This document shows, one piece after another, positions 38,226 through 63,864 of a stretch of 64,000 nt of DNA (the first letter of the stretch is position 1; the number at the start of each line of letters is the position of its first letter). The translations under genes were made by a program, and so were the position numbers. The DNA is from a virus (Duplodnaviria; Caudoviricetes). Under the pieces are notes generated by a model. It ran no database searches and was not told where the DNA came from. It worked only from the letters and a program-made list of their open reading frames with translations. Location of the stretch: IMG/VR virus record IMGVR_UViG_3300021964_000051, positions 1,786 through 65,785 of that record. One strand, written 5' to 3'.

Positions 38226-38519
38226 TTATTCACCTATAAATACATCTAATCCAATAAATTCTCCTTCTATTTTCTTTTCGTAGTTCCAAAAAAGTTCTCC
38301 GTTAAATTCATCTTCATCGGCATATCTCATTTTCCAACCTAAATTGTTCAGTTTTCTATTTAATTCATCCCAATTCACATCTAATGGAAACAGTAAATCA
38401 ATATCTTTTGGATTATCCTTTTTTCCGACAGAACCAACAATTTTTGGTTTAAATTCCTTTAAATCATCAAGCAAAGAATTAGCAATAGAAACATAGTTTT
38501 TGAGTATGCTAAACCACAT
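38226..38519 (-). CDS. minimal (Pol beta-like) nucleotidyltransferase with a WxxILK leader
   Basis: IVGSV...KDIDLL...LDVF; starts MWFSILK. Confidence 0.75.
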   Translation of the reverse strand: MWFSILKNYVSIANSLLDDLKEFKPKIVGSVGKKDNPKDIDLLFPLDVNWDELNRKLNNLGWKMRYADEDEFNGELFWNYEKKIEGEFIGLDVFIGE

Positions 38520-39184
38520 ATCAATGCCCCCACCTAAAAATATTTATTTAACATCATTTCTAAATGTTTTATAGCATCTTCCATCTCATATTCTGTAATT
38601 CCTGCACTTCTTCTAAGATTTTCTTCATCTTTACTCGTTAAAGAATTATTTTTCATTCTTTGTAATAATTGTTTTCCTAATTCTGCTACTTTTGAATCTG
38701 GTAAATATTTATATTTGGGGGTATCAGGCATTCTTCTATCTATTTTGGAAGGGAATTCTTTCCCTCTTGGGGTAATGTTTCTTCTAGTGTCAATAAACAT
38801 CCAATAAATCTTATCTTCCGTATCTTTATAATTAGCGTAGCCTTCATCCATTCGCATTGAAAAATCTTGGTCTGTTTTAAGAGCCTGTTTAATTGTGGGT
38901 TTTGCTTCATTTTTATATGAGGATTTTTGTTCAGGAACGACCTGTGAACCGAAGAAAGCATAACATAAGGCTTCATCTAATCTAGGAGTCCAATGTAAAG
39001 TGCTATCTTCATACCTTCTATTTTCTGGTAAATTTGAAGTTTTTCCTTGTGCGCCTTGAAATAATTTATTAAATTTAAATCTCATGTCATACGGTTCGCT
39101 GTCAGTTTCTCCGGGATTTACAATTTCTCCATGTATAACATATGGCTTTTTTAAAATATCCCACCACATATTAATGCCCCCACC
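38513..39184. repeat. 22-nt direct repeat pair at 38513-38534 and 39163-39184 (1 mismatch)
   Basis: accacatat(c/t)aatgcccccacc at both ends of the 38534..39169 gene. Confidence 0.85.
38534..39169 (-). CDS. WxxILK-leader protein, possible ADP-ribosyltransferase-like fold (paralog of 63123..63608)
   Basis: MWWDILK; LFQG...HWTP..DEA..YA..GS...KPTIKQA. Confidence 0.6.
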   Translation of the reverse strand: MWWDILKKPYVIHGEIVNPGETDSEPYDMRFKFNKLFQGAQGKTSNLPENRRYEDSTLHWTPRLDEALCYAFFGSQVVPEQKSSYKNEAKPTIKQALKTDQDFSMRMDEGYANYKDTEDKIYWMFIDTRRNITPRGKEFPSKIDRRMPDTPKYKYLPDSKVAELGKQLLQRMKNNSLTSKDEENLRRSAGITEYEMEDAIKHLEMMLNKYF

Positions 39185-39389
39185 CGTTTAACAAAGTGTC
39201 AAACAAGAAACCCATGATGTTGATGTCAAAAACACCAAGGATGTTTCCAATAAGGAAACCCGAAAGACAAGCGCAACTGCCCCAAAACCATGCTCGCATT
39301 TTCAAAAAGAAAATATCAGCAGAATGCGCTCTTTGTTGATTATAAGCATAATCCGAATCGGAAAAGCCCATCAAATCTCCAAAGACCAC
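39171..39389 (-). CDS. small membrane protein
   Basis: 72 aa with the hydrophobic C-terminal half AWFWGSCACLSGFLIGNILGVF. Confidence 0.75.
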   Translation of the reverse strand: MVFGDLMGFSDSDYAYNQQRAHSADIFFLKMRAWFWGSCACLSGFLIGNILGVFDINIMGFLFDTLLNGWGH

Positions 39390-39401
39390 TCAACCACCGC
39401 C

Positions 39402-39785
39402 TTATTGAAGGGCGGCTAAGAACTCATTTCCAACGCTATTTTCTTCTTCCTGTTGAATAGGTTGATAAAAAGTAGTATTGTATTGCTTTGCGCTTTCACG
39501 CATCTTTTGTCTTTGTTGTTCGTCCCTAGCCTTTCTTTCCCAGTATGCCGCAATTTTACGGTCTAAGAGCCAAAGTTCAATTTTGTCGTTAAGGGATAGG
39601 TCAAAAATAGCCTTCATAACCATAATCGCACCAATCGTCCCTAAGCCAAATAGAACTGAATGCGCTAATGGGCCATATGGGAAACTCATGCCGAAAGCGG
39701 CATATGCCCAAACATTTGTTCCGCTTAATGCACCAACAAATAAAATGGTCATAATTAGACGAGTATCTTGACTTAATGCAACCAT
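39402..39785 (-). CDS. two-transmembrane-helix protein with a charged cytoplasmic tail
   Basis: LIMTILFVGALSGTNVWAYAAF and SVLFGLGTIGAIMVMKAIF, followed by a coiled/charged tail. Confidence 0.8.
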   Translation of the reverse strand: MVALSQDTRLIMTILFVGALSGTNVWAYAAFGMSFPYGPLAHSVLFGLGTIGAIMVMKAIFDLSLNDKIELWLLDRKIAAYWERKARDEQQRQKMRESAKQYNTTFYQPIQQEEENSVGNEFLAALQ

Positions 39786-39809
39786 TTCACTTAGCCTCCT
39801 TATCTCACC

Positions 39810-40091: not shown

Positions 40092-40151
40092 TTTAAACAA
40101 CTCCGTTCAACCTGTCTATGAGGTATCACCCTCTTAACCCTATCGCTAGGA

Positions 40152-40472: not shown

Positions 40473-40482
40473 TTAAACCACC

Positions 40483-40818: not shown

Positions 40819-40827
40819 TTAATCACC

Positions 40828-42180
40828 TCAAAGGAGATTGGTAATCTTTCCTTGGCCCTTGAAGTAAGAACAACCAGTTTCAGCCATTGTGCGGTAAAGA
40901 GCCTTGTTTCCAAGAGAACCGACACCGAATGGGTTTCCGTTGCTGATACCATCTTCAAAGTATTGTGTAGGCTTCATCACAGATAGCCACAAATGGTCAG
41001 TATCAAGGAAAAGCATATCACTAATCAAAGAACTGTTTGTTCCAGTAGAAGGCATAGCCGCAACAGGAATCAAAGGAATGTCGTAGTAAGTAGAAACACG
41101 GAAACCGACTTCTGCACCCTTAACACCACGAACACCGTTCACAGTAGGAACGATTTCCTTTCTATCCATGAAACGCTCTTGAGCCTGAAGCAAGTCAGAA
41201 AGCGTTTGAAGAGTATCATATCCCGTAAGAATGACCTTTGGCGAACCACCAGCAACACGGAGTCTGCGAACCATGTCGTTAATCACAGTAAGCGTCAATT
41301 GTCGTGCTTCTGCGGAAAGGTAGCCATCACCGAAAGAAATCTCGGAGTCTAAATACTCATTACCAGCCGCACTTCGGAGTTTTCCGTAAAGAGTGTCAAT
41401 TTGTTGGTCAGTAGCCGTTCCAACAAGGTTTCCTCCAGCATTGTCAGCCAATTCATCAATTTCAGCAGAACTGCTCACAATCTTGTAAAGAGAAGTGTAT
41501 GCTCTATCAATGGCGTTTGCCGTAGCATATGCCGTAGTCGGAGAATAGTTCTCCAAAGGCATAACAAGCATTTGATTCTGCACTTCAGCGTGATGCTTAC
41601 CCATATCCTCTCTCAATTGCGCTCTAATATCACCGATACCATCGTCAATTTGAGCCATTTCCATAGCCAATTCGCTGAAAGCAAATTGATGAGCGATGAT
41701 TTTTGGACTGGTAAAGAGCGTATCATACTCAGGAGCAATTGAAATCAAACCATCCGTATTTGAATCAAGGCTGGCGTTTTCGGGAACACCACCAATTCGG
41801 TCAGCACGAAGGGCATCAGCACCATAAAGTGAATCAGCGAGAGCCGTGTTAGAAGCGGCAGAAATGTCCAAAAAGTTTCCAGCACCACCAGCAGGTCGCT
41901 TTCTGAGGATTCTCCAACCACTTGACGAATAAGGACGCTTTGCGATAACAGACAATGCGTTGCATTCTCGGTTTAGCATAGACCAGACCTTTTGGCCGTA
42001 AATCTTGTTGTAAAGGTTTGCATTAATACCCGTTGGGTCGCTTAACGAACCATCGTGAGCGACATGAATACCGCTAACGGTTCCTGCCGCTTTAAGCAAT
42101 TGGTTGCTAATATGACCAGTTGCGCCCGTTCCGTAAGTTTGTGCTTCTAAATCTGCAATAGTGTTAATATATCCTACCAT
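40828..42180 (-). CDS. major capsid protein (HK97 fold)
   Basis: 450 aa directly downstream of the protease/scaffold gene; composition and GC-richer codon usage fit a highly expressed gene. Confidence 0.85.
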   Translation of the reverse strand: MVGYINTIADLEAQTYGTGATGHISNQLLKAAGTVSGIHVAHDGSLSDPTGINANLYNKIYGQKVWSMLNRECNALSVIAKRPYSSSGWRILRKRPAGGAGNFLDISAASNTALADSLYGADALRADRIGGVPENASLDSNTDGLISIAPEYDTLFTSPKIIAHQFAFSELAMEMAQIDDGIGDIRAQLREDMGKHHAEVQNQMLVMPLENYSPTTAYATANAIDRAYTSLYKIVSSSAEIDELADNAGGNLVGTATDQQIDTLYGKLRSAAGNEYLDSEISFGDGYLSAEARQLTLTVINDMVRRLRVAGGSPKVILTGYDTLQTLSDLLQAQERFMDRKEIVPTVNGVRGVKGAEVGFRVSTYYDIPLIPVAAMPSTGTNSSLISDMLFLDTDHLWLSVMKPTQYFEDGISNGNPFGVGSLGNKALYRTMAETGCSYFKGQGKITNLL

Positions 42181-42191
42181 CTTAAATCACC

Positions 42192-43361
42192 TCAAAGGTT
42201 TCCTCCAACCATTTTATGAATGTCAGCCCAATCCATTTCGGCTAATTCTTCCATAGTAGGGAGTTTGATTTGGGCTTCTTCTTGAGCCTTAATGATGCTA
42301 TCTCTTTCAGTCGTCAAAGACTTTCGGAGAGCAGTAAATTCCTGCTTAAGAGAAGCAATTTCGCTTTGTGCATCATATTGCGACTTAGCGAGAATGTGTT
42401 CTCTTGAAGAGGTTTCAGCATTGAAACGAGCCTCAAATTGCTTTTGGAGGTTATCGTAAGCCAATTTCTCCAATTGTTCTTGACGGAAAGCCTCGTAAGC
42501 CTTCTCAATGTTTCCAACGGACAAATCAAGAGTTTCTAATTCTTGGTTGTCAAATGCCTTAACAACGGGCAAATCCGATGCTCTTGGCTTTCCGTTGTCA
42601 ATAACGACTCTATCGGCAGGTTCACCGATTTCAACGCCAGCACCGTCAAGGGTAGAAACATAAGCCTTTGCTTCGGAATCACCGTAGCCCATGCTTTCTT
42701 CATCTTCTTCCATCGGCATACCCTTTTCATCTGCGGGCATATCCATACTTTCCTCTTCTTCTTCTTTACGGAGCATATTCACTTCTTCCATCAAAGCGTC
42801 TAGTTCCGCTAATGCTTTTTCAATTTTGGTCATATTTTTCACCTTTTTATCTTGCTTTAAAATGTCAAATTTTGCTTCTGGATTAATTCCTTTTTCACAA
42901 ATAGTGACTTCGTGTAATTCTAACTTTGAAATTTCATTGTATTGTCCAAATTCATCATTGGTTTTCTTTACTTTTTCTAAAGCCTGTCCTCCAATACTGA
43001 AACTTCTTAATGAACCTTTTCTAATGCCTCGGTTAATTTCTTTGGCTTTTTCAATATCATCTCTTAACTTAATAACAACAAAGAATCCAACATCATCAAC
43101 TTCAGTTTTCCATATTCGTCCTGTTTTATCTCGGTATGATTCAACAACTTCCCCAACTTGAACATTTGAATGATTAGTCATTACATTTCTAAACTTGGGG
43201 TTCTCCATATATTTTTTAACAGCATCATTGAGTGCTTTAAGTGTAATTAAGTCATTTTGCTTATCAACGATTTCAATGCTTGCATATCCACCAATCATTA
43301 ATTCGTCGCTTTTTAGAATCCTGAAATCTTGAGTTGTGTTTCTCATCACAGCAGAAGTCAT
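42192..43361 (-). CDS. prohead protease fused to a scaffolding domain
   Basis: IGGYAS..VDKQND, H in MTNHS, SFSIGG and EVTIC..GINPEA; acidic coiled-coil C-terminal half. Confidence 0.9.
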   Translation of the reverse strand: MTSAVMRNTTQDFRILKSDELMIGGYASIEIVDKQNDLITLKALNDAVKKYMENPKFRNVMTNHSNVQVGEVVESYRDKTGRIWKTEVDDVGFFVVIKLRDDIEKAKEINRGIRKGSLRSFSIGGQALEKVKKTNDEFGQYNEISKLELHEVTICEKGINPEAKFDILKQDKKVKNMTKIEKALAELDALMEEVNMLRKEEEEESMDMPADEKGMPMEEDEESMGYGDSEAKAYVSTLDGAGVEIGEPADRVVIDNGKPRASDLPVVKAFDNQELETLDLSVGNIEKAYEAFRQEQLEKLAYDNLQKQFEARFNAETSSREHILAKSQYDAQSEIASLKQEFTALRKSLTTERDSIIKAQEEAQIKLPTMEELAEMDWADIHKMVGGNL

Positions 43362-43390
43362 TCTTCCTCACCCCTACTAACCAATATCCA

Positions 43391-43400
43391 GTATATAAAG
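43391..43400 (-). promoter_or_regulatory. archaeal TATA box upstream of the protease-capsid operon
   Basis: CTTTATATAC on the - strand about 30 nt upstream of the protease ATG, in one of the few intergenic gaps. Confidence 0.6.
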
Positions 43401-43405
43401 AACAC

Positions 43406-46387: not shown

Positions 46388-46392
46388 ACTAA

Positions 46393-46929
46393 TCATCTAT
46401 TTTTTTGGTATTCGGAGTCTAAAGTTTCTCCTGAATATTCCGAATCATAAGCAATCGTTTGTTCAGGAATTTGAGATAATTCGCTTTCAAGTTCCATTAA
46501 TTTCTTATTAACTTCAACAATTCTATTCATCATCTCATTCTGTTCATCGGGTTTAGCATCCTTGATTTGTTTAGATAACCCAGTAAGCATAGCAGATAAA
46601 CCATCAATTTGTCCAATCAATCTCATTCTTTGTTCATGGTCTAACATAGGATTAGTTTCATAATCTTCAGGTAAAATGTTCTTTAGAATCTTAACCATTT
46701 TAGTTACTTCACCAGCATAAGCATGAAGAGTAGTCGGGCCATCATTTGATTCTGCCTTGTAGTTGTAATTTTCAGCCTTTGGTCGCTTCAATTTAACTGC
46801 TTCTGAATCATCATCTTCTGGACTACGGTTGTTGTCCATTAAGGATTGATAAAGCATTTCTTTTGCTTCTCTTGCTTTTTGAATCATAATACTGATTTTT
46901 CTTTCTTCTCTAGTAACTCTTTGAGGCAT
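46393..46929 (-). CDS. hypothetical head-region protein
   Basis: ORF with a GAGTGA RBS; coiled-coil C-terminus. Confidence 0.65.
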   Translation of the reverse strand: MPQRVTREERKISIMIQKAREAKEMLYQSLMDNNRSPEDDDSEAVKLKRPKAENYNYKAESNDGPTTLHAYAGEVTKMVKILKNILPEDYETNPMLDHEQRMRLIGQIDGLSAMLTGLSKQIKDAKPDEQNEMMNRIVEVNKKLMELESELSQIPEQTIAYDSEYSGETLDSEYQKNR

Positions 46930-46934
46930 TTTAA

Positions 46935-47180
46935 TCACTCCATCTTTGAAACCATTTTATGAATATCAGACCAATCCATGCTAGAAACATCGGTAGTGGG
47001 TAATGAATCAAAACCACCAACAGTATTATCCATAGCAGGTGTTGGACTTTGTGAAACAACAAGACCCGCCTTCATCAAAAGACTGTCTTTTGCGTAGATT
47101 GTCTTTTCTAATGCTTCAACCTTTGCGGTCAAAGCCTTGATAATTTCTAAAACATCTTTGTTAATACTTTCTTCTGTCAT
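46935..47180 (-). CDS. small scaffold-like protein
   Basis: Coiled coil plus C-terminal MDWSDIHKMV, nearly identical to the scaffold C-terminus. Confidence 0.7.
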   Translation of the reverse strand: MTEESINKDVLEIIKALTAKVEALEKTIYAKDSLLMKAGLVVSQSPTPAMDNTVGGFDSLPTTDVSSMDWSDIHKMVSKME

Positions 47181-47184
47181 AATA

Positions 47185-47439
47185 TCACATTCCAAATTTA
47201 GCCTTGCACCTGTCTCTTTCTTCCATATATTCTTTTTCAGACATTCCGCCCATTCCAAATTTCTTATTCAAACGGTCTATACAGGCAAGATAACTTTGAG
47301 AATCTAAAGTGCTTCCCCTCATGGGCTTTCTTCTACTTCCGCCTCTAAATCCTGCTGAACTCAGTCCTCTTCCTTTTGATACTTCATTACAGTCATCACA
47401 ACCGCAACCATGTGCCTTTAATATATTTTTCCAACTCAT
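47185..47439 (-). CDS. WxxILK-leader Cys/Gly/Arg-rich small protein
   Basis: MSWKNILKAHGCGCDDC... Confidence 0.7.
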   Translation of the reverse strand: MSWKNILKAHGCGCDDCNEVSKGRGLSSAGFRGGSRRKPMRGSTLDSQSYLACIDRLNKKFGMGGMSEKEYMEERDRCKAKFGM

Positions 47440-47801
47440 TTCTTTTCCTCTCCTTTTCCACTAGGATAAACTAAATCTCTTAATTGCCGATAGAGTAACT
47501 CATACTCCTTACGCAACTTCGTAGCAGTAGCCACAATATCAATGTTGCGCTCATCCATAGACTTCATTTTTTTGTTTAATTTCTTATCTGACTTAGTTAA
47601 ATCTAATTCTCTAAGAACCTCAATAAGTTCACCTAATTTAGTAAAGTCTTGACCGAAAAACTCAGTTGGTTCTGCGGCTTGAAGAGTTTTCTTTAACTTT
47701 TTTCTTCCTTTAGCATCTAAAGAATCAAGAAGTTTTTTAGGTTCTTGTTTTTTCTCTTTGAGAATAAAATTATCACCATCACCATAATAGTCCCAAGTCA
47801 T
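47436..47801 (-). CDS. hypothetical head-region protein
   Basis: 121 aa, translationally coupled. Confidence 0.7.
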   Translation of the reverse strand: MTWDYYGDGDNFILKEKKQEPKKLLDSLDAKGRKKLKKTLQAAEPTEFFGQDFTKLGELIEVLRELDLTKSDKKLNKKMKSMDERNIDIVATATKLRKEYELLYRQLRDLVYPSGKGEEKK

Positions 47802-49456: not shown

Positions 49457-49465
49457 TTAACCACC

Positions 49466-49690
49466 TCAAAAGGGAATGTTTTCTTTCTTTCCTCTTTTCC
49501 TAGAAGGAAGGAGAATAACATCAGGATTATCAGCAGAAGAAGGTAAAGATTTATGAGAGGAATCTGGAGGAAGTCCAACAGACATATCTTTATTCTTTTG
49601 AACCTTATTATTTTCTTGAGCCGTCATAGCCTTAACTTTGGCTAACTCTTGAGTCAATCTTCTTTGCTTTTGGTGTAAATCTTCGCTCAT
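49466..49690 (-). CDS. hypothetical protein
   Basis: 74 aa with a GGAGG RBS. Confidence 0.65.
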   Translation of the reverse strand: MSEDLHQKQRRLTQELAKVKAMTAQENNKVQKNKDMSVGLPPDSSHKSLPSSADNPDVILLPSRKRGKKENIPF

Positions 49691-50016
49691 AGTTTTTCCT
49701 CCAATGTTCCCTGTGTTCTTTCTAAAATAGCAATGATTTGTTCTTTGGAAAGGCTTTTAATATAATTAGTAGCCCTATCAATTAAATCTTCTCTTGTCAT
49801 TTCAGCAAGATTAGACATATCTTCTTCAAAAACCATATCTAAACTATCCACTCTTCCTCTTGGATTTAGGTCAGCAATAGGATTTCCTCCCTTCATTCTT
49901 GTTTGAGTGGGTCTTTTGACCTTATTACTCAAAACCTTTTCAGGGATTTCTTTACCCCCTCCAAGTTTGCCTTTTCTATCTCTTACTGCTTTTAAAATAT
50001 TTTCCCAATTATTCAT
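49687..50016 (-). CDS. WxxILK-leader protein
   Basis: Starts MNNWENILKA immediately after the portal stop. Confidence 0.7.
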   Translation of the reverse strand: MNNWENILKAVRDRKGKLGGGKEIPEKVLSNKVKRPTQTRMKGGNPIADLNPRGRVDSLDMVFEEDMSNLAEMTREDLIDRATNYIKSLSKEQIIAILERTQGTLEEKL

Positions 50017-50017
50017 C

Positions 50018-51658
50018 TTAATCAACTCTCCTTTCGGTTCTGTTGTCATTGTTTTGATTACCTGCATCTAATGGTAATCCCGAAAGTCTCTTATCGGGTG
50101 CTACGCTCATCCTGCTTTTATTCCTTGTGGCGGGTGGGTTCTCTTGAGGTTTCCCTCCGCCTTCCATAGCCTGTTCTTGCATCTGCCCTAGTTGTGAAGC
50201 ATCAATATTTGTTCCTGCATAGGGGTCAGGAGCCGCTTGTTCTCCTTCACCTTCTGCTGGCGGTTTTTCTTCGGGTTCAGGTTTCTTAAAAGTAAAGTTA
50301 CCATCTTCATCCATATCAACATCAAATCCTAAATTTTTAGTTGATGCTGCGATATTAACTTCTATTTCACGCTTACGAAGAACAGCAATTTCATCTTCTT
50401 CTTCGCTCGGTGGTAATTTCAAATCCCAATCTGTAATTCCAAATTGTTTAACAAGGAACGGAAATACATAATTATTATACACAGTTTGTGCTTTTTGAAC
50501 TGCACGATTTGTTACGAGGATTTGCATACCTTCATTGTTTAATCCACCGCTTGTAGTGTTATCAGCCATGAATACTTTACTTACACCATAGAACGCTGAA
50601 ATTCTATCTCGCAAATCATCTTTAACAGAAACATAATCCATTTCCTTAAGACTATCCATGAACTTAATCCATTCAACTGCTCCCTTACCACTTTCTGCTT
50701 CAATTCCCATAACTGGGATAAAATGAGGGTCAGCCTCCATTTTTTCTTTTACTGAACGCCAAAAAGAACGCATTGAGTCCATATTTCTAGTTTGAACTGC
50801 AAGTAATCCTCTCGGCATTCTGCTCTTAGTATAAGATTGATTAACATAGTTTTCCATAGCAATAAGAGTCATAATATTATTAAATAAAGTAATAACAGGA
50901 GACATACCATAAAGACGAGAAGGACTATATTTACTAAAATGTAATACTTCTCCCTTTAAAAAGTGCTGGTCTTCCCCATTTACTCTATTAACATAATGAA
51001 TAGGAAATAAATTACTATCACAGACTTCACATCTTTCGTGAGGGTCAGGATGAATGACTCCACGATGATTTACACAAGTGAAACCTTTAGTTCCTCTTTG
51101 TCCATTTTCATCACTATAAATAAACATAGTAACTGGGTCGCCACGATAAATTTCTTTAATTCTATGCATTCTAATTTTACCATTACCATCAATAAAATAT
51201 TCTTTAACCAAAACAATGTAAGCATCGTCCATGATATTTAAATCATCTTCAAGTTCTTGAAGAACATCAATAAATAGTTGTTCAGATTTATTAACATATC
51301 CTTCAATGAATCTTTCAGCATATTCTAATTGTTTAACATCAGGAATTTTTAAATCAGGACTTTTACAACGAGAACATTCTTGAACAGGTCTTTTATGTTC
51401 TTTTCCACAAGAATTACATAGTGCTTCATAAGACTTTTCCCAAACATATCCTCTTCTAAAAACTTCTTGTTTTAGTTGAGTAATACAAGTTCTAGCAATA
51501 ACAGATTGATTAACAATATTATAGATAATTGGGCCAGTCATCATGTGATTGGTTTCCCTTTCTTGGATGCCCATATTGAAAACTTTTCTATCAGCAGGTT
51601 TAGGAGTTTGCCTCCTAAAGAGGTTACTAAAACTAAATCTTCTGCTATCTTCAGCCAT
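50018..51658 (-). CDS. portal protein with two zinc-ribbon insertions
   Basis: EVLHF..YGMSP, MPRGLL and ISAFYGVS portal motifs; CNSC..CSRC and CVNH..CEVC inserts. Confidence 0.9.
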   Translation of the reverse strand: MAEDSRRFSFSNLFRRQTPKPADRKVFNMGIQERETNHMMTGPIIYNIVNQSVIARTCITQLKQEVFRRGYVWEKSYEALCNSCGKEHKRPVQECSRCKSPDLKIPDVKQLEYAERFIEGYVNKSEQLFIDVLQELEDDLNIMDDAYIVLVKEYFIDGNGKIRMHRIKEIYRGDPVTMFIYSDENGQRGTKGFTCVNHRGVIHPDPHERCEVCDSNLFPIHYVNRVNGEDQHFLKGEVLHFSKYSPSRLYGMSPVITLFNNIMTLIAMENYVNQSYTKSRMPRGLLAVQTRNMDSMRSFWRSVKEKMEADPHFIPVMGIEAESGKGAVEWIKFMDSLKEMDYVSVKDDLRDRISAFYGVSKVFMADNTTSGGLNNEGMQILVTNRAVQKAQTVYNNYVFPFLVKQFGITDWDLKLPPSEEEDEIAVLRKREIEVNIAASTKNLGFDVDMDEDGNFTFKKPEPEEKPPAEGEGEQAAPDPYAGTNIDASQLGQMQEQAMEGGGKPQENPPATRNKSRMSVAPDKRLSGLPLDAGNQNNDNRTERRVD

Positions 51659-51711
51659 TGATTACACCCCCTGTTTAAAGCCTACGCTATTCCTGCCTAT
51701 CAACGCTTCGG

Positions 51712-51951
51712 TTAGGGTCGTCCACTATCCTCAACATCATACCTTTCATTACTTGAACGAAGCATTTCTTCAAGAATACCCTTTAAACACATAACTTGCT
51801 TTTCAGGGCGTTTATATCCAAGTTTAAGATAGTAGATGACCATTCTTTTATTAATATCAGATAAATTACTAAAGCGAACATATTTAGTTCTATCTTTTGG
51901 TAATTTATCAGAAACAATTCCTTCTTTTAATTCTTTCCAAGTCATTGACAT
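51712..51951 (-). CDS. hypothetical protein with a W..LK leader variant
   Basis: MSMTWKELKE; GGTGA RBS. Confidence 0.6.
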   Translation of the reverse strand: MSMTWKELKEGIVSDKLPKDRTKYVRFSNLSDINKRMVIYYLKLGYKRPEKQVMCLKGILEEMLRSSNERYDVEDSGRP

Positions 51952-51956
51952 TAATA

Positions 51957-52244
51957 TCACCACAATTTTTTACAGGCTAAACATTTAGGAGTAGTAATTC
52001 TTCCTTTACATTGGTCACAGTTATGTCGTGCTTTGAAATTAGCACGACGCTTTTTGTTAGTATGTGTTCCGCCACCACGATTCTTTCCTTTTCCTTTGTA
52101 ATTACCATAACCCTTCGCACCAGCATGAATTTTCTTTCCTTCGTGAGTAAGCATCATAATTTTCTTACCTTCCCTATCAGAAGCATAAACACGACCAACT
52201 CTCATATCTTTTTTGTCTTTCTTTAAAATTTCTTCCCATACCAT
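51957..52244 (-). CDS. basic small protein with a WxxILK leader
   Basis: MVWEEILKK; GKK...IHAGAKGY...RRANFKARHNC pattern, recalled from widespread marine-virus basic proteins. Confidence 0.7.
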   Translation of the reverse strand: MVWEEILKKDKKDMRVGRVYASDREGKKIMMLTHEGKKIHAGAKGYGNYKGKGKNRGGGTHTNKKRRANFKARHNCDQCKGRITTPKCLACKKLW

Positions 52245-52255
52245 AATATCATCTC

Positions 52256-52420
52256 CTAATAAGGCTTTGTCCATAATTTTGCTTCATCAATTTTACAAGT
52301 CCAACAGCGTTTGGAAATAGTTTCTTTTTTACATTTTCTACAAACGGTTGCGTATCTAATTTTTTTAGGCAGTTTTGTTCTTACTCTATGCTTAAAAACA
52401 TCATAATGTCTGCGAGGCAT
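52256..52420 (-). CDS. 54-aa basic zinc-finger microprotein
   Basis: Translated by hand as MPRRHYDVFKHRVRTKLPKKIRYATVCRKCKKETISKRCWTCKIDEAKLWTKPY; fills the gap between its neighbours. Confidence 0.65.
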   Translation of the reverse strand: MPRRHYDVFKHRVRTKLPKKIRYATVCRKCKKETISKRCWTCKIDEAKLWTKPY

Positions 52421-52795
52421 TCAACCTTTCCTCCTTTTATAAGTTTTACAAGCGGCACAGGTTGGTCGGCATCTTTGCTTTGTTCCTTTAGAAGCATCCT
52501 TTCTTCCGCAAGGTTTTGTTCCTTCCTTATCATCTTCGCAAGATTGACAAGAAACCCAACCTTTCTGTCCATCTCCACCTCTTCTTGAAAACCAACCGTG
52601 AAGTCCTTCCTCTTTTTCTCTTTTGAAATTATCTCCGCCTTTTTTTACAGAATTACCCCAATTCTTTGCACCGACCTTTCGGCATTGAACCAAAGCACCT
52701 GAAGCATAAGCAGAAGGCCATTTCTTATAACGACTCCGCACCTTATGATAACAGGCATCTTTTTCCTTTATGAGTTCTTCAAACCATAAGGACAT
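52421..52795 (-). CDS. basic Cys-rich protein with a W..LIK leader
   Basis: MSLWFEELIK; DACYHKV..RY..WPSAYASGALVQCRK and L..WF...GWV..KPCGR modules recalled from marine phages. Confidence 0.72.
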   Translation of the reverse strand: MSLWFEELIKEKDACYHKVRSRYKKWPSAYASGALVQCRKVGAKNWGNSVKKGGDNFKREKEEGLHGWFSRRGGDGQKGWVSCQSCEDDKEGTKPCGRKDASKGTKQRCRPTCAACKTYKRRKG

Positions 52796-54419: not shown

Positions 54420-54428
54420 ATAAATACC

Positions 54429-55859
54429 TCAAAAGTTCAAGCCTATGGTGGACGAAAAGCCCTGTTGTGGTCGTTGTGGCTCATCACCAAACAGTCCTAA
54501 ATCATCAAGGAGTATGAAGTTATCCGAGGCTTGGTATGTGGCCGCATTTGCTAAAGCAAGGCTCATCACCATGTCGTCATGCGCCCCAATTCCCTCAAAC
54601 TTTCCTCGTTCAGTAATCGCAAACATTGACATTTCTTCAATCAATAATGAAGAAACTTTTCTACTCTCTTCGTTGCCGTATGGAAAGTTAATCTTTCCAT
54701 TTTCAAGAGTCATCTGTAAATTAAGAATAATCTCCTGTTTCTTTCTTCGGGTTGTATCAAAATCATGAACATTTACATCAGCAACTTGCCGAAGTTCTTG
54801 AGTAAAGGATTTAGCAAATGTGTTTGTTTCAAACAGAATAACTTCTGGTCTAAAGACCTGATTTAGTAATTTTACCTTTTGAATGTTTTCACGAAACTGA
54901 ACATTTTTTGCTCTATCAACATAGACAATAGATTTATTTTCATTAGCGTCCATTTCAATGACAGTAATAACATTATAGTCGCCATCTGTTGAAATAGCAG
55001 GGTCTACGCCAATAAAATACTTATATCCTTCACGCTTCAAAGGCTTCAATACTAAGTCTTTATTCTTAGCATTCTCTAAATGTTCTGGACTAAACAAAGA
55101 AGTTCCTGTTGAAATCGGAACACACATATATTCTCTTGTGAACATCAATGAACCAACTTCCGCCTTACGAGCCATTAATGCTTCATAGTTCCAACGCTCA
55201 GGCCATAGCGGTTCGTTTAGTGCGTTTAAACAGGGGTAAGTTCTAACAGTATAAGCAGTATTTTCTGCTAATTGTTGGTAAATATCTGTATAACTGAAAG
55301 GAGTTCCAATGACACGCAAAGAAGCGGTGTGGTGAAGAGTAGGAATCATATCACCATAAAACCAATCAGTCACTTTTTGAATACCTGTCATACTAAACTC
55401 TTTCAAAGGGTCGTCAATAATAATTTCTTGAGGGTGAAGCCCACGAATCTGCGAACCAACCGACCTCTCAAGGATTTGGTTTCCATTGGTTAATGTAATG
55501 TTTCCAATAGCCCAACCTCTTGCGGGTTTAAACTTCTTAAGCATTGGATGGGTGAACATTTTATCAATGTCTCTCATGTGAACGAGAGTCTGCTTTTGGT
55601 TAGAAGAAATATAAAGCATTTGATATGGTGGCTCTTCAAAAATTAACTTCCATACAACCCAACTGTGCATAAATACAGATTTACCGTGGTCACGGGAACA
55701 AATAATAACTGTTCTTTGGGTAGTGTTCATTAATTCGTGCCATTCTTGAATATAGGAAGGAAAGTCAAAACCTAATACATTTTGAAAGAAATACGGAAAT
55801 GAATTGCGGGACAATTGCATATCCATTTCGTGTTCAAAATTGAAGGCTTCTAATTCCAT
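54429..55859 (-). CDS. terL: terminase large subunit
   Basis: Walker A SRDHGKS, RG motif, Walker B IIIDD, IGTP, nuclease GVDPA and HDDMVMS. Confidence 0.95.
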   Translation of the reverse strand: MELEAFNFEHEMDMQLSRNSFPYFFQNVLGFDFPSYIQEWHELMNTTQRTVIICSRDHGKSVFMHSWVVWKLIFEEPPYQMLYISSNQKQTLVHMRDIDKMFTHPMLKKFKPARGWAIGNITLTNGNQILERSVGSQIRGLHPQEIIIDDPLKEFSMTGIQKVTDWFYGDMIPTLHHTASLRVIGTPFSYTDIYQQLAENTAYTVRTYPCLNALNEPLWPERWNYEALMARKAEVGSLMFTREYMCVPISTGTSLFSPEHLENAKNKDLVLKPLKREGYKYFIGVDPAISTDGDYNVITVIEMDANENKSIVYVDRAKNVQFRENIQKVKLLNQVFRPEVILFETNTFAKSFTQELRQVADVNVHDFDTTRRKKQEIILNLQMTLENGKINFPYGNEESRKVSSLLIEEMSMFAITERGKFEGIGAHDDMVMSLALANAATYQASDNFILLDDLGLFGDEPQRPQQGFSSTIGLNF

Positions 55860-57937: not shown

Positions 57938-57943
57938 CAAACA

Positions 57944-60391
57944 TCACCTAAACGATGCTTTGATTAGATAAACCTGTTCACTACTAATACCATATTCTCT
58001 TGAAATATTTTCGTGAGAATCAACAGCCTTAATAATCTGTTCCACCTCAAATGAAGTCAAGTCAATATTATCATCAACTTGAAGTTTAGTAATCATCTTA
58101 TTAATACCGTAATCATTAAGAGGAATTTGTCCGTAAATAACTTGCTTTCCTAATTGTTCTCTAATTGCATCGTGAGCCTTTAATAATTTGTGAAGAAGAA
58201 CAGGTAAGTCCACTTGAGCCGACTCAAAGATAGCCTTCAAATTGTTATATGCTTTCTTAGAAGCAGGAGATTTTTTCGTAAGAATACCTTGATTCATGTC
58301 TAACCAATGAGGCAAAGCAAAAACAGGGAAAGGTTTTCGTGCTTTGAAGTCTTTGTAAAATTGCTCGGCTCTTTTCTTAATAGACTTACCATCAAAGTCT
58401 TTCTTTTCTTTTTCCATGCTTCCAGTTTCTCGCATATAATGATGCAATAGTGCGGCAGCATAATTATTGTTTTTCTCTTGAGTGCCTTGACCAAAAATTT
58501 CAGTTAATGCGTCAGCAAACTCTTCACCATCAGTAATCAAACCAGAATCAATTTTAACTTCGGGCATAAAGATAACATTGAGAAAATCAGCAATAGCATT
58601 CATATCCCCAACATCAATTTCTTCTCTTGAACCCTCAAAAAGAGTATCATACGCACCAGACATAACAGTATCTAAGCCCAAATCAAGACTTAAGGTTTGC
58701 ATAACCTTTGAACCAATACTAGAAGCAAAATTAGGCATTTCAATAGGTAGCATACCACTATAAATCGGGTCAAAGAAATAAGCAATAGCAGAATCCATCA
58801 TCTTCTGCAAGTCACTTTTAAAACCTTCTAATTCTCCTCTTAGTTGGCCTTTTTGATTTAAAGACAAGGGAACCTTTGCTCCACCAATTAAACCAACGGT
58901 TGAACCTTGTGCTTCTCTTGCTTCAAAATCACTACCTCTTCCTCTTCCTTTGGAACTTCGGGCTTCAACCTCCATTCGGAAATCGTCATCACTTAAAATT
59001 TCATATAAGTCATTAAAGAAATTTTTAATGTTATCAATATTTTGAACACTAATTTTTTCTCCATCAACAAAAGAAGGGAATGAATCTTCTTCATAAATTT
59101 GATTAAACTTAGCATTATTAAGAACAGAAATAGGCAAGGCCATAACATCAACTTCGCCTTCATCAAGAATCTGAGTATCTTCAACTTGTTCTAACCATTC
59201 TTCAACATCTCTAGTAGTTTCTAAAGTAACTCCTTCTCCCTCATCTAAACTATCTAAAATATCATCAAGAACTTCAAGAATTTCTCTTTCCATATCTTGA
59301 GTAATAGCAATTAACTTTTCTCCTCTATTATATTCATAAACCAATAAAGGGTCAGTTGATTCTAAAATATGTCCTAATTCATCTTTCCAAGTGTATTCTT
59401 CTCCTAATTCAGATAAATCAACAGTATCGCCTTCATTACTACCTCTAGAAAGAGAACTACTCATATCCTGTAATAGTTCTTGGTTCACATCTGCGGCATC
59501 AAATTCATCTTTGTAATTTCCTGCATTAGTTTCTTTAGTAAGCATTCTATCCATAGCCAGTTTATAAGAAACAGCGTTAAAGAAACGATGATAACCAGAC
59601 TCAAATTTTCTATCAACATTATCAAACTTAGCAATATATTCTAAGTTTAAATCATTAAACCGACGAGACAAATCATCAAACTTAGATTGAGTAGTCTCAT
59701 CCCATTCAATTTCTCTAACTTCAATAAAGAAGTTAGCCATATCTTCTTCAAACTGTTCATATAGGCCACCAATTTTTGCCCAGTAATTATATACTTCAAT
59801 ACGATTGCTTTTCTTAGAAACATCAATCGCTCCTAGAACACTATTAATATCAATAGTAAAAGAACTATATTGAGTAGTTTCTAATCTATCTTCAAGAACT
59901 TCTTTTACCTTTTCAAGATTATATCTTAATTCTTCATTAATTAAAGATGTAGGGCCAAGCATCATATTTAGTTCTTTCATCACTTCTGCTTTGGGACTCC
60001 TAACATCAATGCTTCCTTTAATTTTTTGATTTAGTAATTGATTAGAAGAAACTCTTGCTCCTTGATTATATAGATTTAAAGACATAATGTTTGAAACCAT
60101 TCCAGAAGACTGTTGTTGCGAAGCCCGTTCCTGTTTCATAGGCTTGGTTTTCAATTGTTCTGTAATATATTTTCTTGCTGCTTTTCCTTTCTCAGCAATA
60201 CCCGATAGTGCTTTTTCTCTTTCGGAAGCATCTTCAATTAGCCGAGCCTTATCTCTAAGAGAATCGGTAAAGCGATTTAAAATAGAACGCATCTCGGTTC
60301 TTTTCTCGGCGGTTTCTGCTCTCGCTAATCCTTCAAGCCTTTCACGGCTAAGGTCTAGCATTTCTTTTTCTTCCTTTGTTAATTCAACCAT
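57944..60391 (-). CDS. large acidic helical protein, possible internal virion protein
   Basis: About 815 aa, D/E-rich, upstream of terL in the late arm. Confidence 0.7.
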   Translation of the reverse strand: MVELTKEEKEMLDLSRERLEGLARAETAEKRTEMRSILNRFTDSLRDKARLIEDASEREKALSGIAEKGKAARKYITEQLKTKPMKQERASQQQSSGMVSNIMSLNLYNQGARVSSNQLLNQKIKGSIDVRSPKAEVMKELNMMLGPTSLINEELRYNLEKVKEVLEDRLETTQYSSFTIDINSVLGAIDVSKKSNRIEVYNYWAKIGGLYEQFEEDMANFFIEVREIEWDETTQSKFDDLSRRFNDLNLEYIAKFDNVDRKFESGYHRFFNAVSYKLAMDRMLTKETNAGNYKDEFDAADVNQELLQDMSSSLSRGSNEGDTVDLSELGEEYTWKDELGHILESTDPLLVYEYNRGEKLIAITQDMEREILEVLDDILDSLDEGEGVTLETTRDVEEWLEQVEDTQILDEGEVDVMALPISVLNNAKFNQIYEEDSFPSFVDGEKISVQNIDNIKNFFNDLYEILSDDDFRMEVEARSSKGRGRGSDFEAREAQGSTVGLIGGAKVPLSLNQKGQLRGELEGFKSDLQKMMDSAIAYFFDPIYSGMLPIEMPNFASSIGSKVMQTLSLDLGLDTVMSGAYDTLFEGSREEIDVGDMNAIADFLNVIFMPEVKIDSGLITDGEEFADALTEIFGQGTQEKNNNYAAALLHHYMRETGSMEKEKKDFDGKSIKKRAEQFYKDFKARKPFPVFALPHWLDMNQGILTKKSPASKKAYNNLKAIFESAQVDLPVLLHKLLKAHDAIREQLGKQVIYGQIPLNDYGINKMITKLQVDDNIDLTSFEVEQIIKAVDSHENISREYGISSEQVYLIKASFR

Positions 60392-60392
60392 C

Positions 60393-62672
60393 CTAATCAC
60401 TCACTTGTTGTCTAATGATGTTTGCCTCAAGGAACCTTTTATTAGCAAGAATAACTTGGTTGTCTGGGAATGAGGCTGGATTTTTAACAAATTTCTCAAG
60501 ATGTAATTTAAACCCTTCAATAATCTGTTTTTTGATATTTTCTATAATGTTAGGCATATTGTCATTTAATTTCTTAGCCGCCTCTTGCGCTTCTGCTGAA
60601 TCGGGGTTAGCGTCTATGGTCTTAAAGGATTCCCTTACTTCCTCGTCGCCAACCAACTCATCAACTTGAGCAAAGAAACTTAAACTTCTTTCGGGAGTAA
60701 TTGTCTCTAAAGCAGATGCTTTATTTTCTAAAGTGTCAGCGAGTTTTATTAAGCCCCCACTATCCTTTAATTTTTTACCCATCATAATAATATATGCTTC
60801 AAAATCTTCCATGTTTAAAACTTCTTGACGAAGGGTTTCAGTTTGAGCAGAAATATCTATTTCTTTTTTACCTTCTAATCTTTTCTCAGTTTGAGCAATA
60901 TCTCTTTTGAGATTCTTAATTTTTTCTTCTTGTCTTGAAATAGATTCAAGTTTATCCTTCGGTAATTTTGCTTTTCTTCGCATGGCTGTTTCTAATTTTT
61001 GTTTAAGATTAGAAAGTGTTTCCTCAGTCTTTGTTTTTGCACTTTCGGATAACTCAGCAGTTTTACCTCTAACTCCTTCCTTATATGCAGTTTTGGGAGA
61101 AACTTGTTTTAATTCTCCTGTTTCATCATCAATAACTTTAATTACTGCATAATTTGCTTTTTCTTTACCTGAATACCATCTCATTATTTTTTGTCCAGAT
61201 TCATCATATTGTTCGTTTCCATTTTCATCAAGGTCAGGCCCAAGAAACTTTGTGTCATATCCGTCTCTAAAATATTCAACAGTAAAATCTTCACCTTCTT
61301 CATAAAATAGTTCATCTTCTAAAGAGTTAATATAAGCAGTAGCCTCTTTAATAGTAAAATTACCTTCAAGGAATGTCAATTGTTCTTTTTGTCTATTTAG
61401 TGCTTCTGTGGAAATTATGTTCTGGATTCTCTCACTATCAGAAATAATTTTTCTAATTTCAGAAGTAATTTGTTTTCTAGACTTTGAGCCAAGTCCATCA
61501 ATACTAGTAAAAGCACGAATATTAAACTTTCTATCAGTAGATGTTTTACCAGCAATTAATGCTTGATAAATCTCTTCAATAATTGTTTCAGTTGCCTGTT
61601 CTTCTGTAAGTAACTGCTGGACTCTTATAGAATTAAAGAAAGGTTTAGCCCAATCATTAGGAAAGTCGTTTGTAAGAATAATTTTAACAAAAGGATTAAC
61701 ATTTAAAGATTTAGGACTAGATTTATCCAAGAAAATAACAGAAGCAAAGTCAGAACCGTTTGGAAATTTTTTAGGCCTAAATGCTCTTACACTTCCAGCA
61801 ATATTATCAACCGCACTAATGTATTTCATAACAGAAGCACCAGTAAAAGGCTCAACGATTTCCATTTTTTCGCCTGTTGCTACAAAAATCTTCTTTTGAC
61901 GAACTAAATCATCAACTTCAACAGATTCGCTGCCTGAAACAAATAACATTTTCGTATTTGTCTTGCTTCCATCGGGATTTCTCATAATTTTGTTGTAAGT
62001 TTGCTTAACCCTGTCTTTTTGCGTAATAGTCGCATCATCGTCAATGATTTCCTTTGTCTTTTTGCTTCTTTTTGGAACCATTAGAGCAACTAATTCACCA
62101 TTATCTTTTAAATCTGTCAAAATTGAGCCTTCTTTTAGTTCTCCGCCGATTGCTTCGGCAAAATCAGCCAAAAGTTGCTCATTTGATGGTGGATTTTCAA
62201 ACATAATTACAGATTTTCCTGATTTTTCACGCAAAATGTCCAAAGCATCTCTAATATCTCGGTTGGATTGGAGGGTTCTCTTACCTAAATTAGCATTTTG
62301 CTCAATTTCTTCCAAAATTTCATCAACTTTTTGTTGATTTGATTGACTTTTGGCCTCCATAGCCTCATTGAGTAGCCTTCTTACATCATCAATTGTCATA
62401 AAACTAGCGGCTTCCTTCAATTTTTGAATATTTTCTTGCATTTGCTCAATGGTTTGGTCGCCAAACGGAGGTTGACCGTATAAATCTTTCAGTTTTTGCA
62501 GGTCAATTGTCCCTGCATCCACTTGACGAAGCACATCTTTCAATTTTTGGGGCTCAGTTTTAAGATTTTTAATGTCTTCAACTGCTTTTGCTGTTTGAGC
62601 AGCATTAACAATTACAAAGGCCAAAGTATTTTTGTTCGATGGAATCATTTTTAACTGCTCAAACCAACTCAT
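60393..62672 (-). CDS. large helical protein with a W...LK leader, possible internal virion protein
   Basis: Starts MSWFEQLK after a GGAG RBS; 759 aa. Confidence 0.72.
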   Translation of the reverse strand: MSWFEQLKMIPSNKNTLAFVIVNAAQTAKAVEDIKNLKTEPQKLKDVLRQVDAGTIDLQKLKDLYGQPPFGDQTIEQMQENIQKLKEAASFMTIDDVRRLLNEAMEAKSQSNQQKVDEILEEIEQNANLGKRTLQSNRDIRDALDILREKSGKSVIMFENPPSNEQLLADFAEAIGGELKEGSILTDLKDNGELVALMVPKRSKKTKEIIDDDATITQKDRVKQTYNKIMRNPDGSKTNTKMLFVSGSESVEVDDLVRQKKIFVATGEKMEIVEPFTGASVMKYISAVDNIAGSVRAFRPKKFPNGSDFASVIFLDKSSPKSLNVNPFVKIILTNDFPNDWAKPFFNSIRVQQLLTEEQATETIIEEIYQALIAGKTSTDRKFNIRAFTSIDGLGSKSRKQITSEIRKIISDSERIQNIISTEALNRQKEQLTFLEGNFTIKEATAYINSLEDELFYEEGEDFTVEYFRDGYDTKFLGPDLDENGNEQYDESGQKIMRWYSGKEKANYAVIKVIDDETGELKQVSPKTAYKEGVRGKTAELSESAKTKTEETLSNLKQKLETAMRRKAKLPKDKLESISRQEEKIKNLKRDIAQTEKRLEGKKEIDISAQTETLRQEVLNMEDFEAYIIMMGKKLKDSGGLIKLADTLENKASALETITPERSLSFFAQVDELVGDEEVRESFKTIDANPDSAEAQEAAKKLNDNMPNIIENIKKQIIEGFKLHLEKFVKNPASFPDNQVILANKRFLEANIIRQQVSD

Positions 62673-62688
62673 TGTAATTTCTCCTGAA

Positions 62689-63126
62689 TTATCTTTTCCA
62701 TGAAGGAATGTTCTTTTCATCAGTAGTCCAGCCTTCTCCGCCTGTTCTTTCCCATGATTGGGGATTAGAAAAATATTCTTGAATTAATTCCCATAATGCT
62801 TTTCTTTGGGGCAAGTTATCTTCTTGTTGCATAATTTCCATAAGAACGCCCGAAATAGTATTAGAAACACCATATCTACCTCTATTGAATTTATTTTTAC
62901 CTGAAACTTTTTTAAAGGCCGTTATAAATTTATCAACACCAACATAAGTTTTATCCTTTAATTCATATTGAATACCGCTTCCCATTTGGTCTTTAGTCAT
63001 AAAATCTTTCATTTCTTTTGGGTTTTCCATATCTTCCCAAGCATTAGATTCTTCTAAATAACTAGGGCCAGCAACGCCCTTTCTATCATGTTCAAATCTT
63101 GATTTGATTATATCTTTCCAACTCAT
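62689..63126 (-). CDS. WxxIIK-leader hypothetical protein
   Basis: Starts MSWKDIIKS. Confidence 0.75.
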   Translation of the reverse strand: MSWKDIIKSRFEHDRKGVAGPSYLEESNAWEDMENPKEMKDFMTKDQMGSGIQYELKDKTYVGVDKFITAFKKVSGKNKFNRGRYGVSNTISGVLMEIMQQEDNLPQRKALWELIQEYFSNPQSWERTGGEGWTTDEKNIPSWKR

Positions 63127-63608
63127 TGTAATCTCTCCTGCATTTTTTTAGCGTGTTGTATTCTTTCTTCATTTGAGTAAAACTGAGCAGTAGTTTCCAT
63201 CAATTGATTGAATTGTTCGGGTGAAGCATAATTGACCCCATTACTCTCAAAGTCATCATAACCGACAAACTCTAGTTCTCCAATCAATTCATCTATTGCT
63301 TCCTTAACTTCTTTATCAGAAACCAAAGTATAGTCTAACTTACCCATACCCGCCATTGTGTATTCGGGGTCATCTTCCAAATCAATGTTTTCTTTAGTTT
63401 CTTTTGCTTGTTTTATTGTAGGTTTTCCTATATTTTTCATAGGTCTTTTTGTATTGGCTTCGGAACCATAGACAGAATAAACTACGGCTTGATTAAAATA
63501 AGGAGTCCAATAGTTCGTATCTTCTTCTGATTGACTTCCTTGATATAAAAAGGGAGTTTCTGTCCCCCCAATAGAATATGGAGATTTCAAAACAGTTTTC
63601 CAACCCAT
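63123..63608 (-). CDS. WxxVLK-leader protein, paralog of 38534..39169
   Basis: MGWKTVLKSPY; LYQG..YWTP...A..YS..GS..KPTIKQA. Confidence 0.72.
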   Translation of the reverse strand: MGWKTVLKSPYSIGGTETPFLYQGSQSEEDTNYWTPYFNQAVVYSVYGSEANTKRPMKNIGKPTIKQAKETKENIDLEDDPEYTMAGMGKLDYTLVSDKEVKEAIDELIGELEFVGYDDFESNGVNYASPEQFNQLMETTAQFYSNEERIQHAKKMQERLQ

Positions 63609-63609
63609 T

Positions 63610-63864
63610 TTAATCCCTCATCGCTTCTTCCTGCTTTTTCTCATAACATGACCTGCATCCTGAAATCCAATTGTCATTGGGTTTTCTTGGGTCTATTGGG
63701 CCACTTACTTCTTGAACTCCTTCGCAACCTCTCAATGCAATTCTGCATGGTTTCAATGGGGTTCTAAACTCTCCTTCGTCGGAAAAGTCCACATCGTTCA
63801 AAGTGGGAAGAAGGTAAATCTCTCTATGGTCTATCCTTTTAAGAATTTTTTCTTTCCAACTCAT
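63610..63864 (-). CDS. W...ILK-leader small Cys-containing protein
   Basis: Starts MSWKEKILKR; contains C-x6-C and CRSC. Confidence 0.68.
   Translation of the reverse strand: MSWKEKILKRIDHREIYLLPTLNDVDFSDEGEFRTPLKPCRIALRGCEGVQEVSGPIDPRKPNDNWISGCRSCYEKKQEEAMRD

Follow-up and report, generated by a model that had tools for sequence, protein, structure and literature searches.

The window analysed here is a 64,000-nucleotide stretch of viral DNA. It occupies bases 1786-65785 of one contig that measures 65,785 bases in all (IMG/VR record IMGVR_UViG_3300021964_000051) and has no terminal repeat. Its plus strand carries a replication module at 1-18.2 kb, with Pfam and PHROGs matches for an ATP-dependent DNA ligase, an RFC-like clamp loader, a split family B DNA polymerase, a PD-(D/E)XK nuclease and an ERCC4 nuclease, and its minus strand carries tail genes and a head module at 18.5-64 kb. 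Our subject is a short leader at the N-termini of proteins encoded on the minus strand. Eleven such starts had been listed in an earlier inspection of the letters alone (the original prediction), and all eleven were confirmed with the N-termini given there; they fit the pattern M-x(0-3)-W-x(2-4)-[LI]-K (Table 1). Each is an ATG behind a Shine-Dalgarno-like GGAG, GGTG, GAGG or AGGA. Three differ in spacing by one residue, as had been noted, the leader at 51951 being one shorter and those at 52795 and 63864 one longer. Genes were called by a simple rule of open reading frame (ORF) plus Shine-Dalgarno sequence, not by a trained gene finder, which gave 71 genes and 20,710 residues. Within these residues W-x(2-4)-[LI]-K occurs internally 7 times, and about 0.096 N-terminal matches are expected by chance, against the 11 seen (Poisson P ~1e-19).

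The distribution of the leader follows the strand and, within the minus arm, the half. It opens 11 of 45 minus-strand genes versus none of 26 plus-strand genes (Fisher p=0.005), so that the earlier statement that no plus-strand replication gene carries it holds. Within the minus arm, 11 of the 30 genes in the head half are tagged versus 0 of 15 in the tail half (p=0.008), and the genes for portal, protease and capsid lie scattered among the tagged ones. Plus-strand genes at 144, 1667 and 17245 open MTWK, MTWK and MKWE, with the hydrophobic-Lys end missing. A general M-x-W bias at plus-strand starts was rejected, W at residue 3 being not significantly enriched there, and starts of the MTWK/MKWE kind in two complete relatives were not above chance (3/78 and 2/74 plus-strand genes). 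Relatives of most of 44001-64000 are represented among the contigs of three RNA libraries, although DNA carry-over is possible and the contigs give no timing; one RNA-library contig of 570 bases, for which carry-over is likewise possible, spans 49486-50055.

Table 1. Leader-bearing genes and head-module genes of the window (aa, amino acids; nt, nucleotides; pI, isoelectric point).
Feature	Coordinates	Strand	Remarks
Tagged gene, 97 aa, MWFSILK (nt 38499-38519)	38226..38519	-	acidic body, pI 4.7; 0 homologous ORFs in 160 loci
Tagged gene, 211 aa, MWWDILK	38534..39169	-	paralog of 63123-63608
Major capsid protein, HK97-like	40828..42180	-	conserved N-terminal helix, residues 4-17; invariant L29-K30 (NQLLK, nt 42091-42105)
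S78 prohead serine protease fused to scaffold	42192..43361	-	directly upstream of capsid gene
81-aa helical protein	46935..47180	-	ends ...SSMDWSDIHKMVSKME, tail MDWSDIHKM at residues 68-76
Tagged gene, 84 aa, MSWKNILK	47185..47439	-	basic body, 5 Cys
Stretched twelfth leader MTWDYYGDGDNFILK, conserved 121-aa gene	47436..47801	-	starts at 47801
Tagged gene, 109 aa, MNNWENILK	49687..50016	-	directly downstream of portal gene
Portal protein	50018..51658	-	Pfam/PHROG matches
Tagged gene, 79 aa, MSMTWKELK	51712..51951	-	relatives read MSWKQLK or MSWRELHK
Tagged gene, 95 aa, MVWEEILK	51957..52244	-	very basic (pI 10.2), 4 Cys
Tagged gene, 124 aa, MSLWFEELIK	52421..52795	-	DUF5872-like Cys-rich module directly after Lys
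Terminase large subunit	54429..55859	-	Pfam/PHROG matches
Tagged gene, 759 aa, MSWFEQLK	60393..62672	-	large acidic protein; family of 17, 645-811 aa
Tagged gene, 145 aa, MSWKDIIK	62689..63126	-	1 homologous ORF in 160 loci
Tagged gene, 161 aa, MGWKTVLK	63123..63608	-	paralog of 38534-39169
Tagged gene, 84 aa, MSWKEKILK	63610..63864	-	0 homologous ORFs in 160 loci

Among deposited phage records, the capsid protein matches only haloarchaeal and methanogen tailed viruses (24-30% identity), the best matches being haloarchaeal viruses at 24-25%. The head module is thus nearest to those of haloviruses, the replication module is of archaeal type, and the terminase has 188 relatives in IMG/VR, of which the complete ones, at 91-95 kb, belong to the ~100-kb genome class. 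Measured against the published description of magroviruses (PMC5434244), we infer that the window derives from a magrovirus-like archaeal tailed virus. A search for related loci with P0132 gave no relative among viral contigs.

The leader recurs throughout these relatives. In 80 terminase loci it stands at 472 of 2756 ATG starts that have a ribosome-binding site on the terminase strand, versus none of the 100 such starts on the opposite strand. Once genes had been called, 544 of the 1690 genes lying within 10 kb of the terminase in these loci are tagged (32%), and 175 of the 277 gene families found there carry the leader. Two complete relatives have it on 6/70 and 13/76 minus-strand genes, versus 0/78 and 0/74 plus-strand genes, and nowhere in the tail module. 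Over 153 families the consensus is M-[SNT]-W-[EKQF]-[DNES]-I-[LI]-K, followed by a free residue and then often by an acidic one. The idea that tagged families change faster than other small genes was not borne out, the single-locus share being 0.62 for both tagged and untagged families. The conserved 121-aa gene at 47436-47801 has 118 homologous ORFs in 160 related loci, all opening MTWD[YF]YG..FILK; its start, MTWDYYG-x-G-x-x-FILK, can be read as a leader in which some seven extra residues separate W from ILK.

At the conserved Ile, Leu and Lys of the leader, every synonymous codon is used at near background frequencies, and therefore selection acts on the protein and not on the RNA. In seven families with at least 8 distinct members, mean pairwise identity is 0.52 over the leader, 0.16 over the next 15 residues and 0.28 over the rest; leader identity exceeds that of the next 15 residues in all seven families and that of the rest in six. 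The peptide also occurs away from N-termini. A 692-aa protein encoded upstream of the terminase gene (55859-57937, minus strand) contains internal copies at residues 180-185 (WFNLLK) and 367-372 (WKDILK), both of them at module borders and followed by x-x-P-D. Relatives of this protein join a conserved first module (residues 1-185) to differing downstream modules, and in one related locus (L009) the second module is a separate ORF, with the frame at its start reading ..SWKKILK. The leader is portable, as seen from the 175 body families, from the Cys-rich module that begins right after the Lys of the gene at 52421-52795, and from cassettes of tag plus body that are found either fused or separate.

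These observations bear on the possibility that the conserved element is a nucleic-acid one, acting in translation initiation or in recombination at gene starts, or a duplicated N-terminus that was simply inherited, the peptide itself being without function. Neighbouring tagged genes do have 12-15 bases upstream of the ATG in common, on the minus strand: GCAGGAGAGATTACA (62649-63900) precedes the starts at 63126, 63864 and 62672, and GGTGGGGGCATT (38499-39190) precedes those at 38519 and 39169. Such common bases point to local duplication or to an exchange of cassettes at gene starts, which they could aid. However, the background-like codon usage, the tolerance of one-residue length changes with W and Lys kept, the same peptide at internal sites and a related form at C-termini (described below), and a leader that is far better conserved than what follows it on 175 unrelated body families all speak against this explanation, which we disfavour as very improbable. 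Codon use, leader identity, module borders and internal copies count against a role in translation initiation as well as against plain shared ancestry. We are confident that the leader is a functional tag at the level of the protein.

The bodies behind the leader are diverse. Five of those in the window are basic, often Cys-rich and weakly like DUF5754 or DUF5872, and the others are acidic or neutral. The product of 51957-52244 resembles DUF5754 weakly (PF19058, E=1.7e-5, below cut-off), and residues 10-52 of that of 52421-52795 match positions 266-308 of phrog_727 (2.7e-19), a module that is internal in other phage proteins. In the family of 49687-50016, the leader is followed by a variable basic linker and a conserved helical C-terminal domain, with M1 and W4 invariant in a 19-sequence alignment. 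Twelve ORFs are homologous to 47185-47439; 11 have the leader pattern and one a near-variant. The median pI of tagged proteins is 9.2; that of untagged genes is 5.6, or 6.6 when small untagged genes alone are taken. A membrane-like hydrophobic run of at least 17 residues occurs in 0 of 520 tagged proteins; given this and the amphipathic character and length of the leader (7-10 residues), a Sec/Tat signal peptide, which has some 10-20 residues of hydrophobic core behind a charged N-region, was ruled out.

Some of the functions originally proposed for these bodies were not supported. A Pfam search of 14 proteins at E<=1 returned nothing above cut-offs, and the 759-aa protein has no Pfam match below E=0.4. 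The nucleotidyltransferase said to be among the tagged proteins finds no Pfam or PHROGs match, the sole hint being DUF6932 at E=0.05 for 38226-38519. The genes at 38534-39169 and 63123-63608 are indeed paralogs, and their 17 database homologs are all tagged (17/17), with the leader followed by KPY-I; their proposed likeness to ADP-ribosyltransferases has no Pfam or PHROGs support and is left with weak leads. For 38534-39169, an atlas search gave scores of 0.85 at most, with Arr-ms at rank 16 (0.83). The AF2 model of this protein is poor (pLDDT 65.6), and Foldseek found nothing for it in the PDB at E<=0.001. VIA-align ranks Arr, the rifampin ADP-ribosyltransferase, first for the model (Z 3.8, with an rmsd of 5.0 over 107 residues), and this possible fold match is a lead only.

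A form related to the leader lies at the C-termini of two head-module proteins. The protease-scaffold at 42192-43361 matches Peptidase_S78 (PF04586; 7.6e-10, 39.6 bits versus a cut-off of 21) and a PHROG head maturation protease (7.8e-16). It ends ...AEMDWADIHKMVGGNL, with the C-terminal helix MDWADIHKM at residues 376-384 (nt 42210-42236); an AF2 model (pLDDT 67.8) likewise predicts the tail to be a terminal helix, at residues 378-386. This protein and the 81-aa protein at 46935-47180 are alike only in their last ~10 residues. Both tails fit M-[DE]-W-x-[DE]-I-H-K-M, and the core M-[DE]-W-x-x-I-H-K-M is kept in nearly all of 78 relatives of the protease-scaffold and 53 of the 81-aa protein. 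Distant protease-scaffolds were taken from a search of representatives, direct homolog listing having given close relatives only (at least 79% identity); many of the 60 distant representatives, though not all, carry a tail of the form [ML]-S-W-x-[DE]-[IV], which is also found in related loci. The leader M-S-W-x-[DE]-I-L-K equals the scaffold tail at M, W, the acidic residue and Ile, and in the window's clade also at Lys.

Phage 80alpha offers a comparison: as PMC5644958 describes it, the 80alpha scaffold and CpmB of SaPI1 have a common C-terminal helix-and-hook ending RIIK, which binds the N-arm of the capsid protein, and the protease-scaffold and 81-aa protein repeat this pattern of a conserved terminal amphipathic helix on two proteins. 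By analogy, the 81-aa protein may be to the protease-scaffold what CpmB is to the 80alpha scaffold, a mini-scaffold or a competitor. Unlike that helix, the leader stands at the N-terminus, on many proteins that are not scaffolds, and there is no sequence homology; its position makes it at most a mimic of the scaffold C-terminal helix.

The same comparison lends itself to an account in which the leader is a docking tag that is never removed, binding the capsid N-arm or the scaffold with I-L-K as its binding hook; the proteins that bear it may then help in assembly or stay inside the head for good. Its likeness to the scaffold and 81-aa tails fits such a tag, the more so as these tails, being C-terminal, cannot serve as N-terminal propeptides; so do the binding of the capsid protein by an amphipathic helix and R-I-I-K hook in 80alpha scaffold and CpmB (PMC5644958), the freedom of the residue after the leader Lys, and the internal leader copies. 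Three points go the other way. The Lys is invariant in both types of leader (the second type is described below), but not in the scaffold tails; the linker behind the leader is poorly conserved, which is what a removable piece would show; and hydrophobic-hydrophobic-Lys recurs both at a conserved site in the N-terminus of the capsid protein and where protease and scaffold join. We regard the uncleaved tag, which with the non-capsid hub considered below is a main rival of our preferred account, as unlikely.

These two sites stand out in the alignments. In the capsid protein, L29-K30 is invariant amid variable flanks, reading NQLLK-A, NALLK-A and SELLK-A in three clades. In the protease-scaffold, the junction reads F165-D-I-L-K169, and across 37 diverse sequences F-x-I-L-K169 shows little or no variation; K169 is followed by a variable acidic linker, and the AF2 model would place the site between the last strand and a low-confidence stretch. 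Both types of leader, the capsid residue-30 site and the protease-scaffold junction thus all end in hydrophobic-hydrophobic-Lys. The protease-scaffolds of loci L171-L250 have an extra [VL]-L-L-K-A near residue 10, upstream of a conserved I-L-K-S, which resembles the N-A-L-L-K-A of the capsid protein.

A destination outside the capsid has also to be weighed. W-x-x-[ILV] is a common short binding motif, and the leader could address a hub of host or viral origin encountered in the cytoplasm, for instance a chaperone, a degradation machine or a ubiquitin-like protein that binds W-x-x-[ILV], so that a set of host-takeover proteins would be handled jointly or destroyed at a set time. The size and diversity of the tagged set (175 families, 32% of the genes near the terminase) would suit a hub of this kind, as would the location of many tagged genes at the beginning of the arm, upstream of the terminase, from where they may be expressed earlier. 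Against it, the leader is limited to the head-gene strand, with none in the tail module or the other arm, tagged genes alternate with those for portal, protease and capsid, the leader sequence is common to the scaffold tail and to conserved head-protein sites, and no candidate hub was identified. We consider this explanation unlikely.

We propose instead that M-[SNT]-W-x-x-I-[LI]-K may be a portable sorting tag of magrovirus-like viruses that loads proteins into the procapsid and is clipped by the head protease, a proposal that in our judgement has an even chance of being right. Taken singly, the procapsid is slightly favoured as the destination, and for a leader that goes there, cleavage after the Lys is evenly balanced. 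Prohead proteases of the HK97 and T4 types act inside the procapsid, so a leader that ends in the protease's site would imply entry into the head. The short amphipathic leader helix would show Trp and two aliphatic residues on one face and would dock the tagged protein inside the assembling procapsid, on the conserved N-terminal arm of the capsid protein or on the scaffold core, much as the Trp tail of the scaffold may do. Inside the procapsid, the S78 prohead protease would cut after the invariant Lys; it would also trim the first 30 residues of the capsid protein and split itself from the scaffold. The freed proteins, mostly small, soluble and often basic, would remain associated with the DNA and pass with it into the next host cell. 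The fullest version, a programmable delivery in which any leader-bearing gene product is loaded into the capsid, freed by the protease along with capsid N-arm and scaffold, and injected with the DNA, we put forward only tentatively for these viruses, which rank among the most abundant that infect ocean archaea. The original prediction had held that the leader directs varied effectors into the procapsid, is cut after Lys and that the cargo is injected. What stood of this is a real, portable protein-level tag on the strand and in the region of the head genes, together with an S78 protease beside the capsid gene, hydrophobic-hydrophobic-Lys sites in head proteins and the likeness to the scaffold tail; docking, cleavage, packaging and injection are steps that we only infer.

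Comparison across 211 loci revealed how leader, tail and capsid change relative to each other. The leader described so far (type 1) is found in clades with 40-100% capsid identity, and M-S-F-[DE]-x-A-W-x-L-L-K (type 2) in a clade with 32-40%. In this sister clade (L251-L324), the longer leader, more broadly M-S-[AF]-F-[DE]-x-A-W-x-[LFV]-[LM]-K-A, is on larger proteins of 59-542 aa. The capsid L-L-K site is retained there, and the capsid N-arm differs across the switch, from GY[IF]xT..DLE..TYG to DYVRTITDMERYYYG. The leader may follow the capsid N-arm, a suggestion that rests on a single evolutionary switch.

A number of findings weigh against loading and clipping. The switch of leader leaves the scaffold tail nearly unchanged (MSWDEVHSLF in a type-1 clade versus MSWDEVHQLA in the type-2 clade), and the tail Lys of the window's clade is not conserved in other type-1 clades. 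Simple tail mimicry is therefore weakened, in that the leader does not follow the tail; as a general rule, a leader that strictly copies the scaffold tail was rejected, since the type-2 clade alters the one and not the other. Many distant S78 representatives have the I-L-K that directly precedes the protease core, and it adjoins the first strand; being so widespread and so placed, I-L-K17 may be structural and not a cut site, and the same may apply to K169. V-V-K268 and I-I-K358 are not kept outside the window's clade. With I-L-K17 a common S78 feature and these two clade-specific, the notion that all five hydrophobic-hydrophobic-Lys sites are cut was discarded. The residue after the leader Lys is unconstrained, and the upstream end of the minus arm holds several of the tagged genes. 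The tagged load, with 11-12 genes here and 32% of the genes near the terminase in relatives, and with a 759-aa protein among its members, is far above known head-cargo sets. Finally, neither such a scaffold tail nor, in the 36 coding sequences inspected, such a leader occurs in HVTV-1, a cultured relative.

Short peptides that bring varied proteins into a shell have precedents. In encapsulins, a short terminal cargo-loading peptide, usually C-terminal and uncleaved, brings unrelated cargo inside an HK97-fold shell; the presence of terminase, portal and tail genes ruled out an encapsulin here. The closest known systems are, besides the tail common to 80alpha scaffold and CpmB, the P1 signal described below and the capsid targeting sequence (CTS) of phage T4, whose own sequence we take to be unlike the leader motif. 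According to PMC3012670, diverse internal proteins carry the CTS (IPI-III, and the products of the polymorphic internal-protein genes in T-even phages), so that, as here, a short N-terminal peptide is the sole common feature of diverse, changing small proteins; T4 and this virus both encode a prohead protease, and in both many of the bodies are basic. Packaging and cleavage, which are proposed here, are proven for T4. The two also differ in that the protease here is of the HK97 type (S78) and that of T4 of the T4 type, in that the host here is archaeal, in the likeness of the leader to the scaffold tail, and in the repertoire, which at 175 families in 80 loci is far larger than that of T4. In phage P1, PMC9024508 describes an N-terminal capsid signal on DarB; in the Dar system as with the leader, accessory proteins large and small are proposed to reach the head by way of an N-terminal signal and to be delivered with the DNA, but in P1 the signal is on one protein and its partners are loaded stepwise, whereas here one motif is on dozens of genes. 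The main texts of three magrovirus papers (PMC5434244, PMC11706807 and PMC10160649) mention no N-terminal leader, and further full-text literature searches found no description of it, in agreement with the earlier remark that such a system had not been described for archaeal viruses.

Several other genes of the window deserve mention. The family B DNA polymerase is split into 9557-11191 and 11754-12647 on the plus strand, with small ORFs in between at 11279-11749. In the head module, a 996-aa protein encoded between the 81-aa tail protein and the protease (43406-46396, minus strand) has a nucleotidyltransferase domain of the ATP-dependent ligase type (PF01068, 8.7e-32), the second in the window besides that of the DNA ligase at 135-1670 (plus strand); the 996-aa protein has no leader. 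Between the terminase and tagged genes, a 546-aa protein (52779-54419, minus strand) gives a weak HNH-endonuclease match (phrog_5046, 9.3e-5), and the HVTV-1 terminase is likewise flanked by HNH genes. Downstream of the tagged pair at 38226-39169, a 222-aa protein (37556-38224, minus strand) weakly resembles GTPases (MMR_HSR1, E=6e-4, below cut-off) and contains a P-loop-like GATMVGKTT.

Whatever its destination, an eight-residue tag on a third of a region's genes needs explaining. Should it prove to be a head-loading signal, it would be the first such system in archaeal viruses, with by far the largest repertoire for any tailed virus, and scaffold tails, protease sites and cargo tags would be joined in one assembly logic. 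With the tag, foreign proteins could then also be brought into HK97-type shells. For this uncultured and very abundant group of archaeal viruses, the set of injected proteins would be legible from sequence, and the hundreds of tagged families to which no function is assigned would become candidate anti-defence or host-takeover factors, a catalogue of first-strike effectors against Marine Group II archaea.

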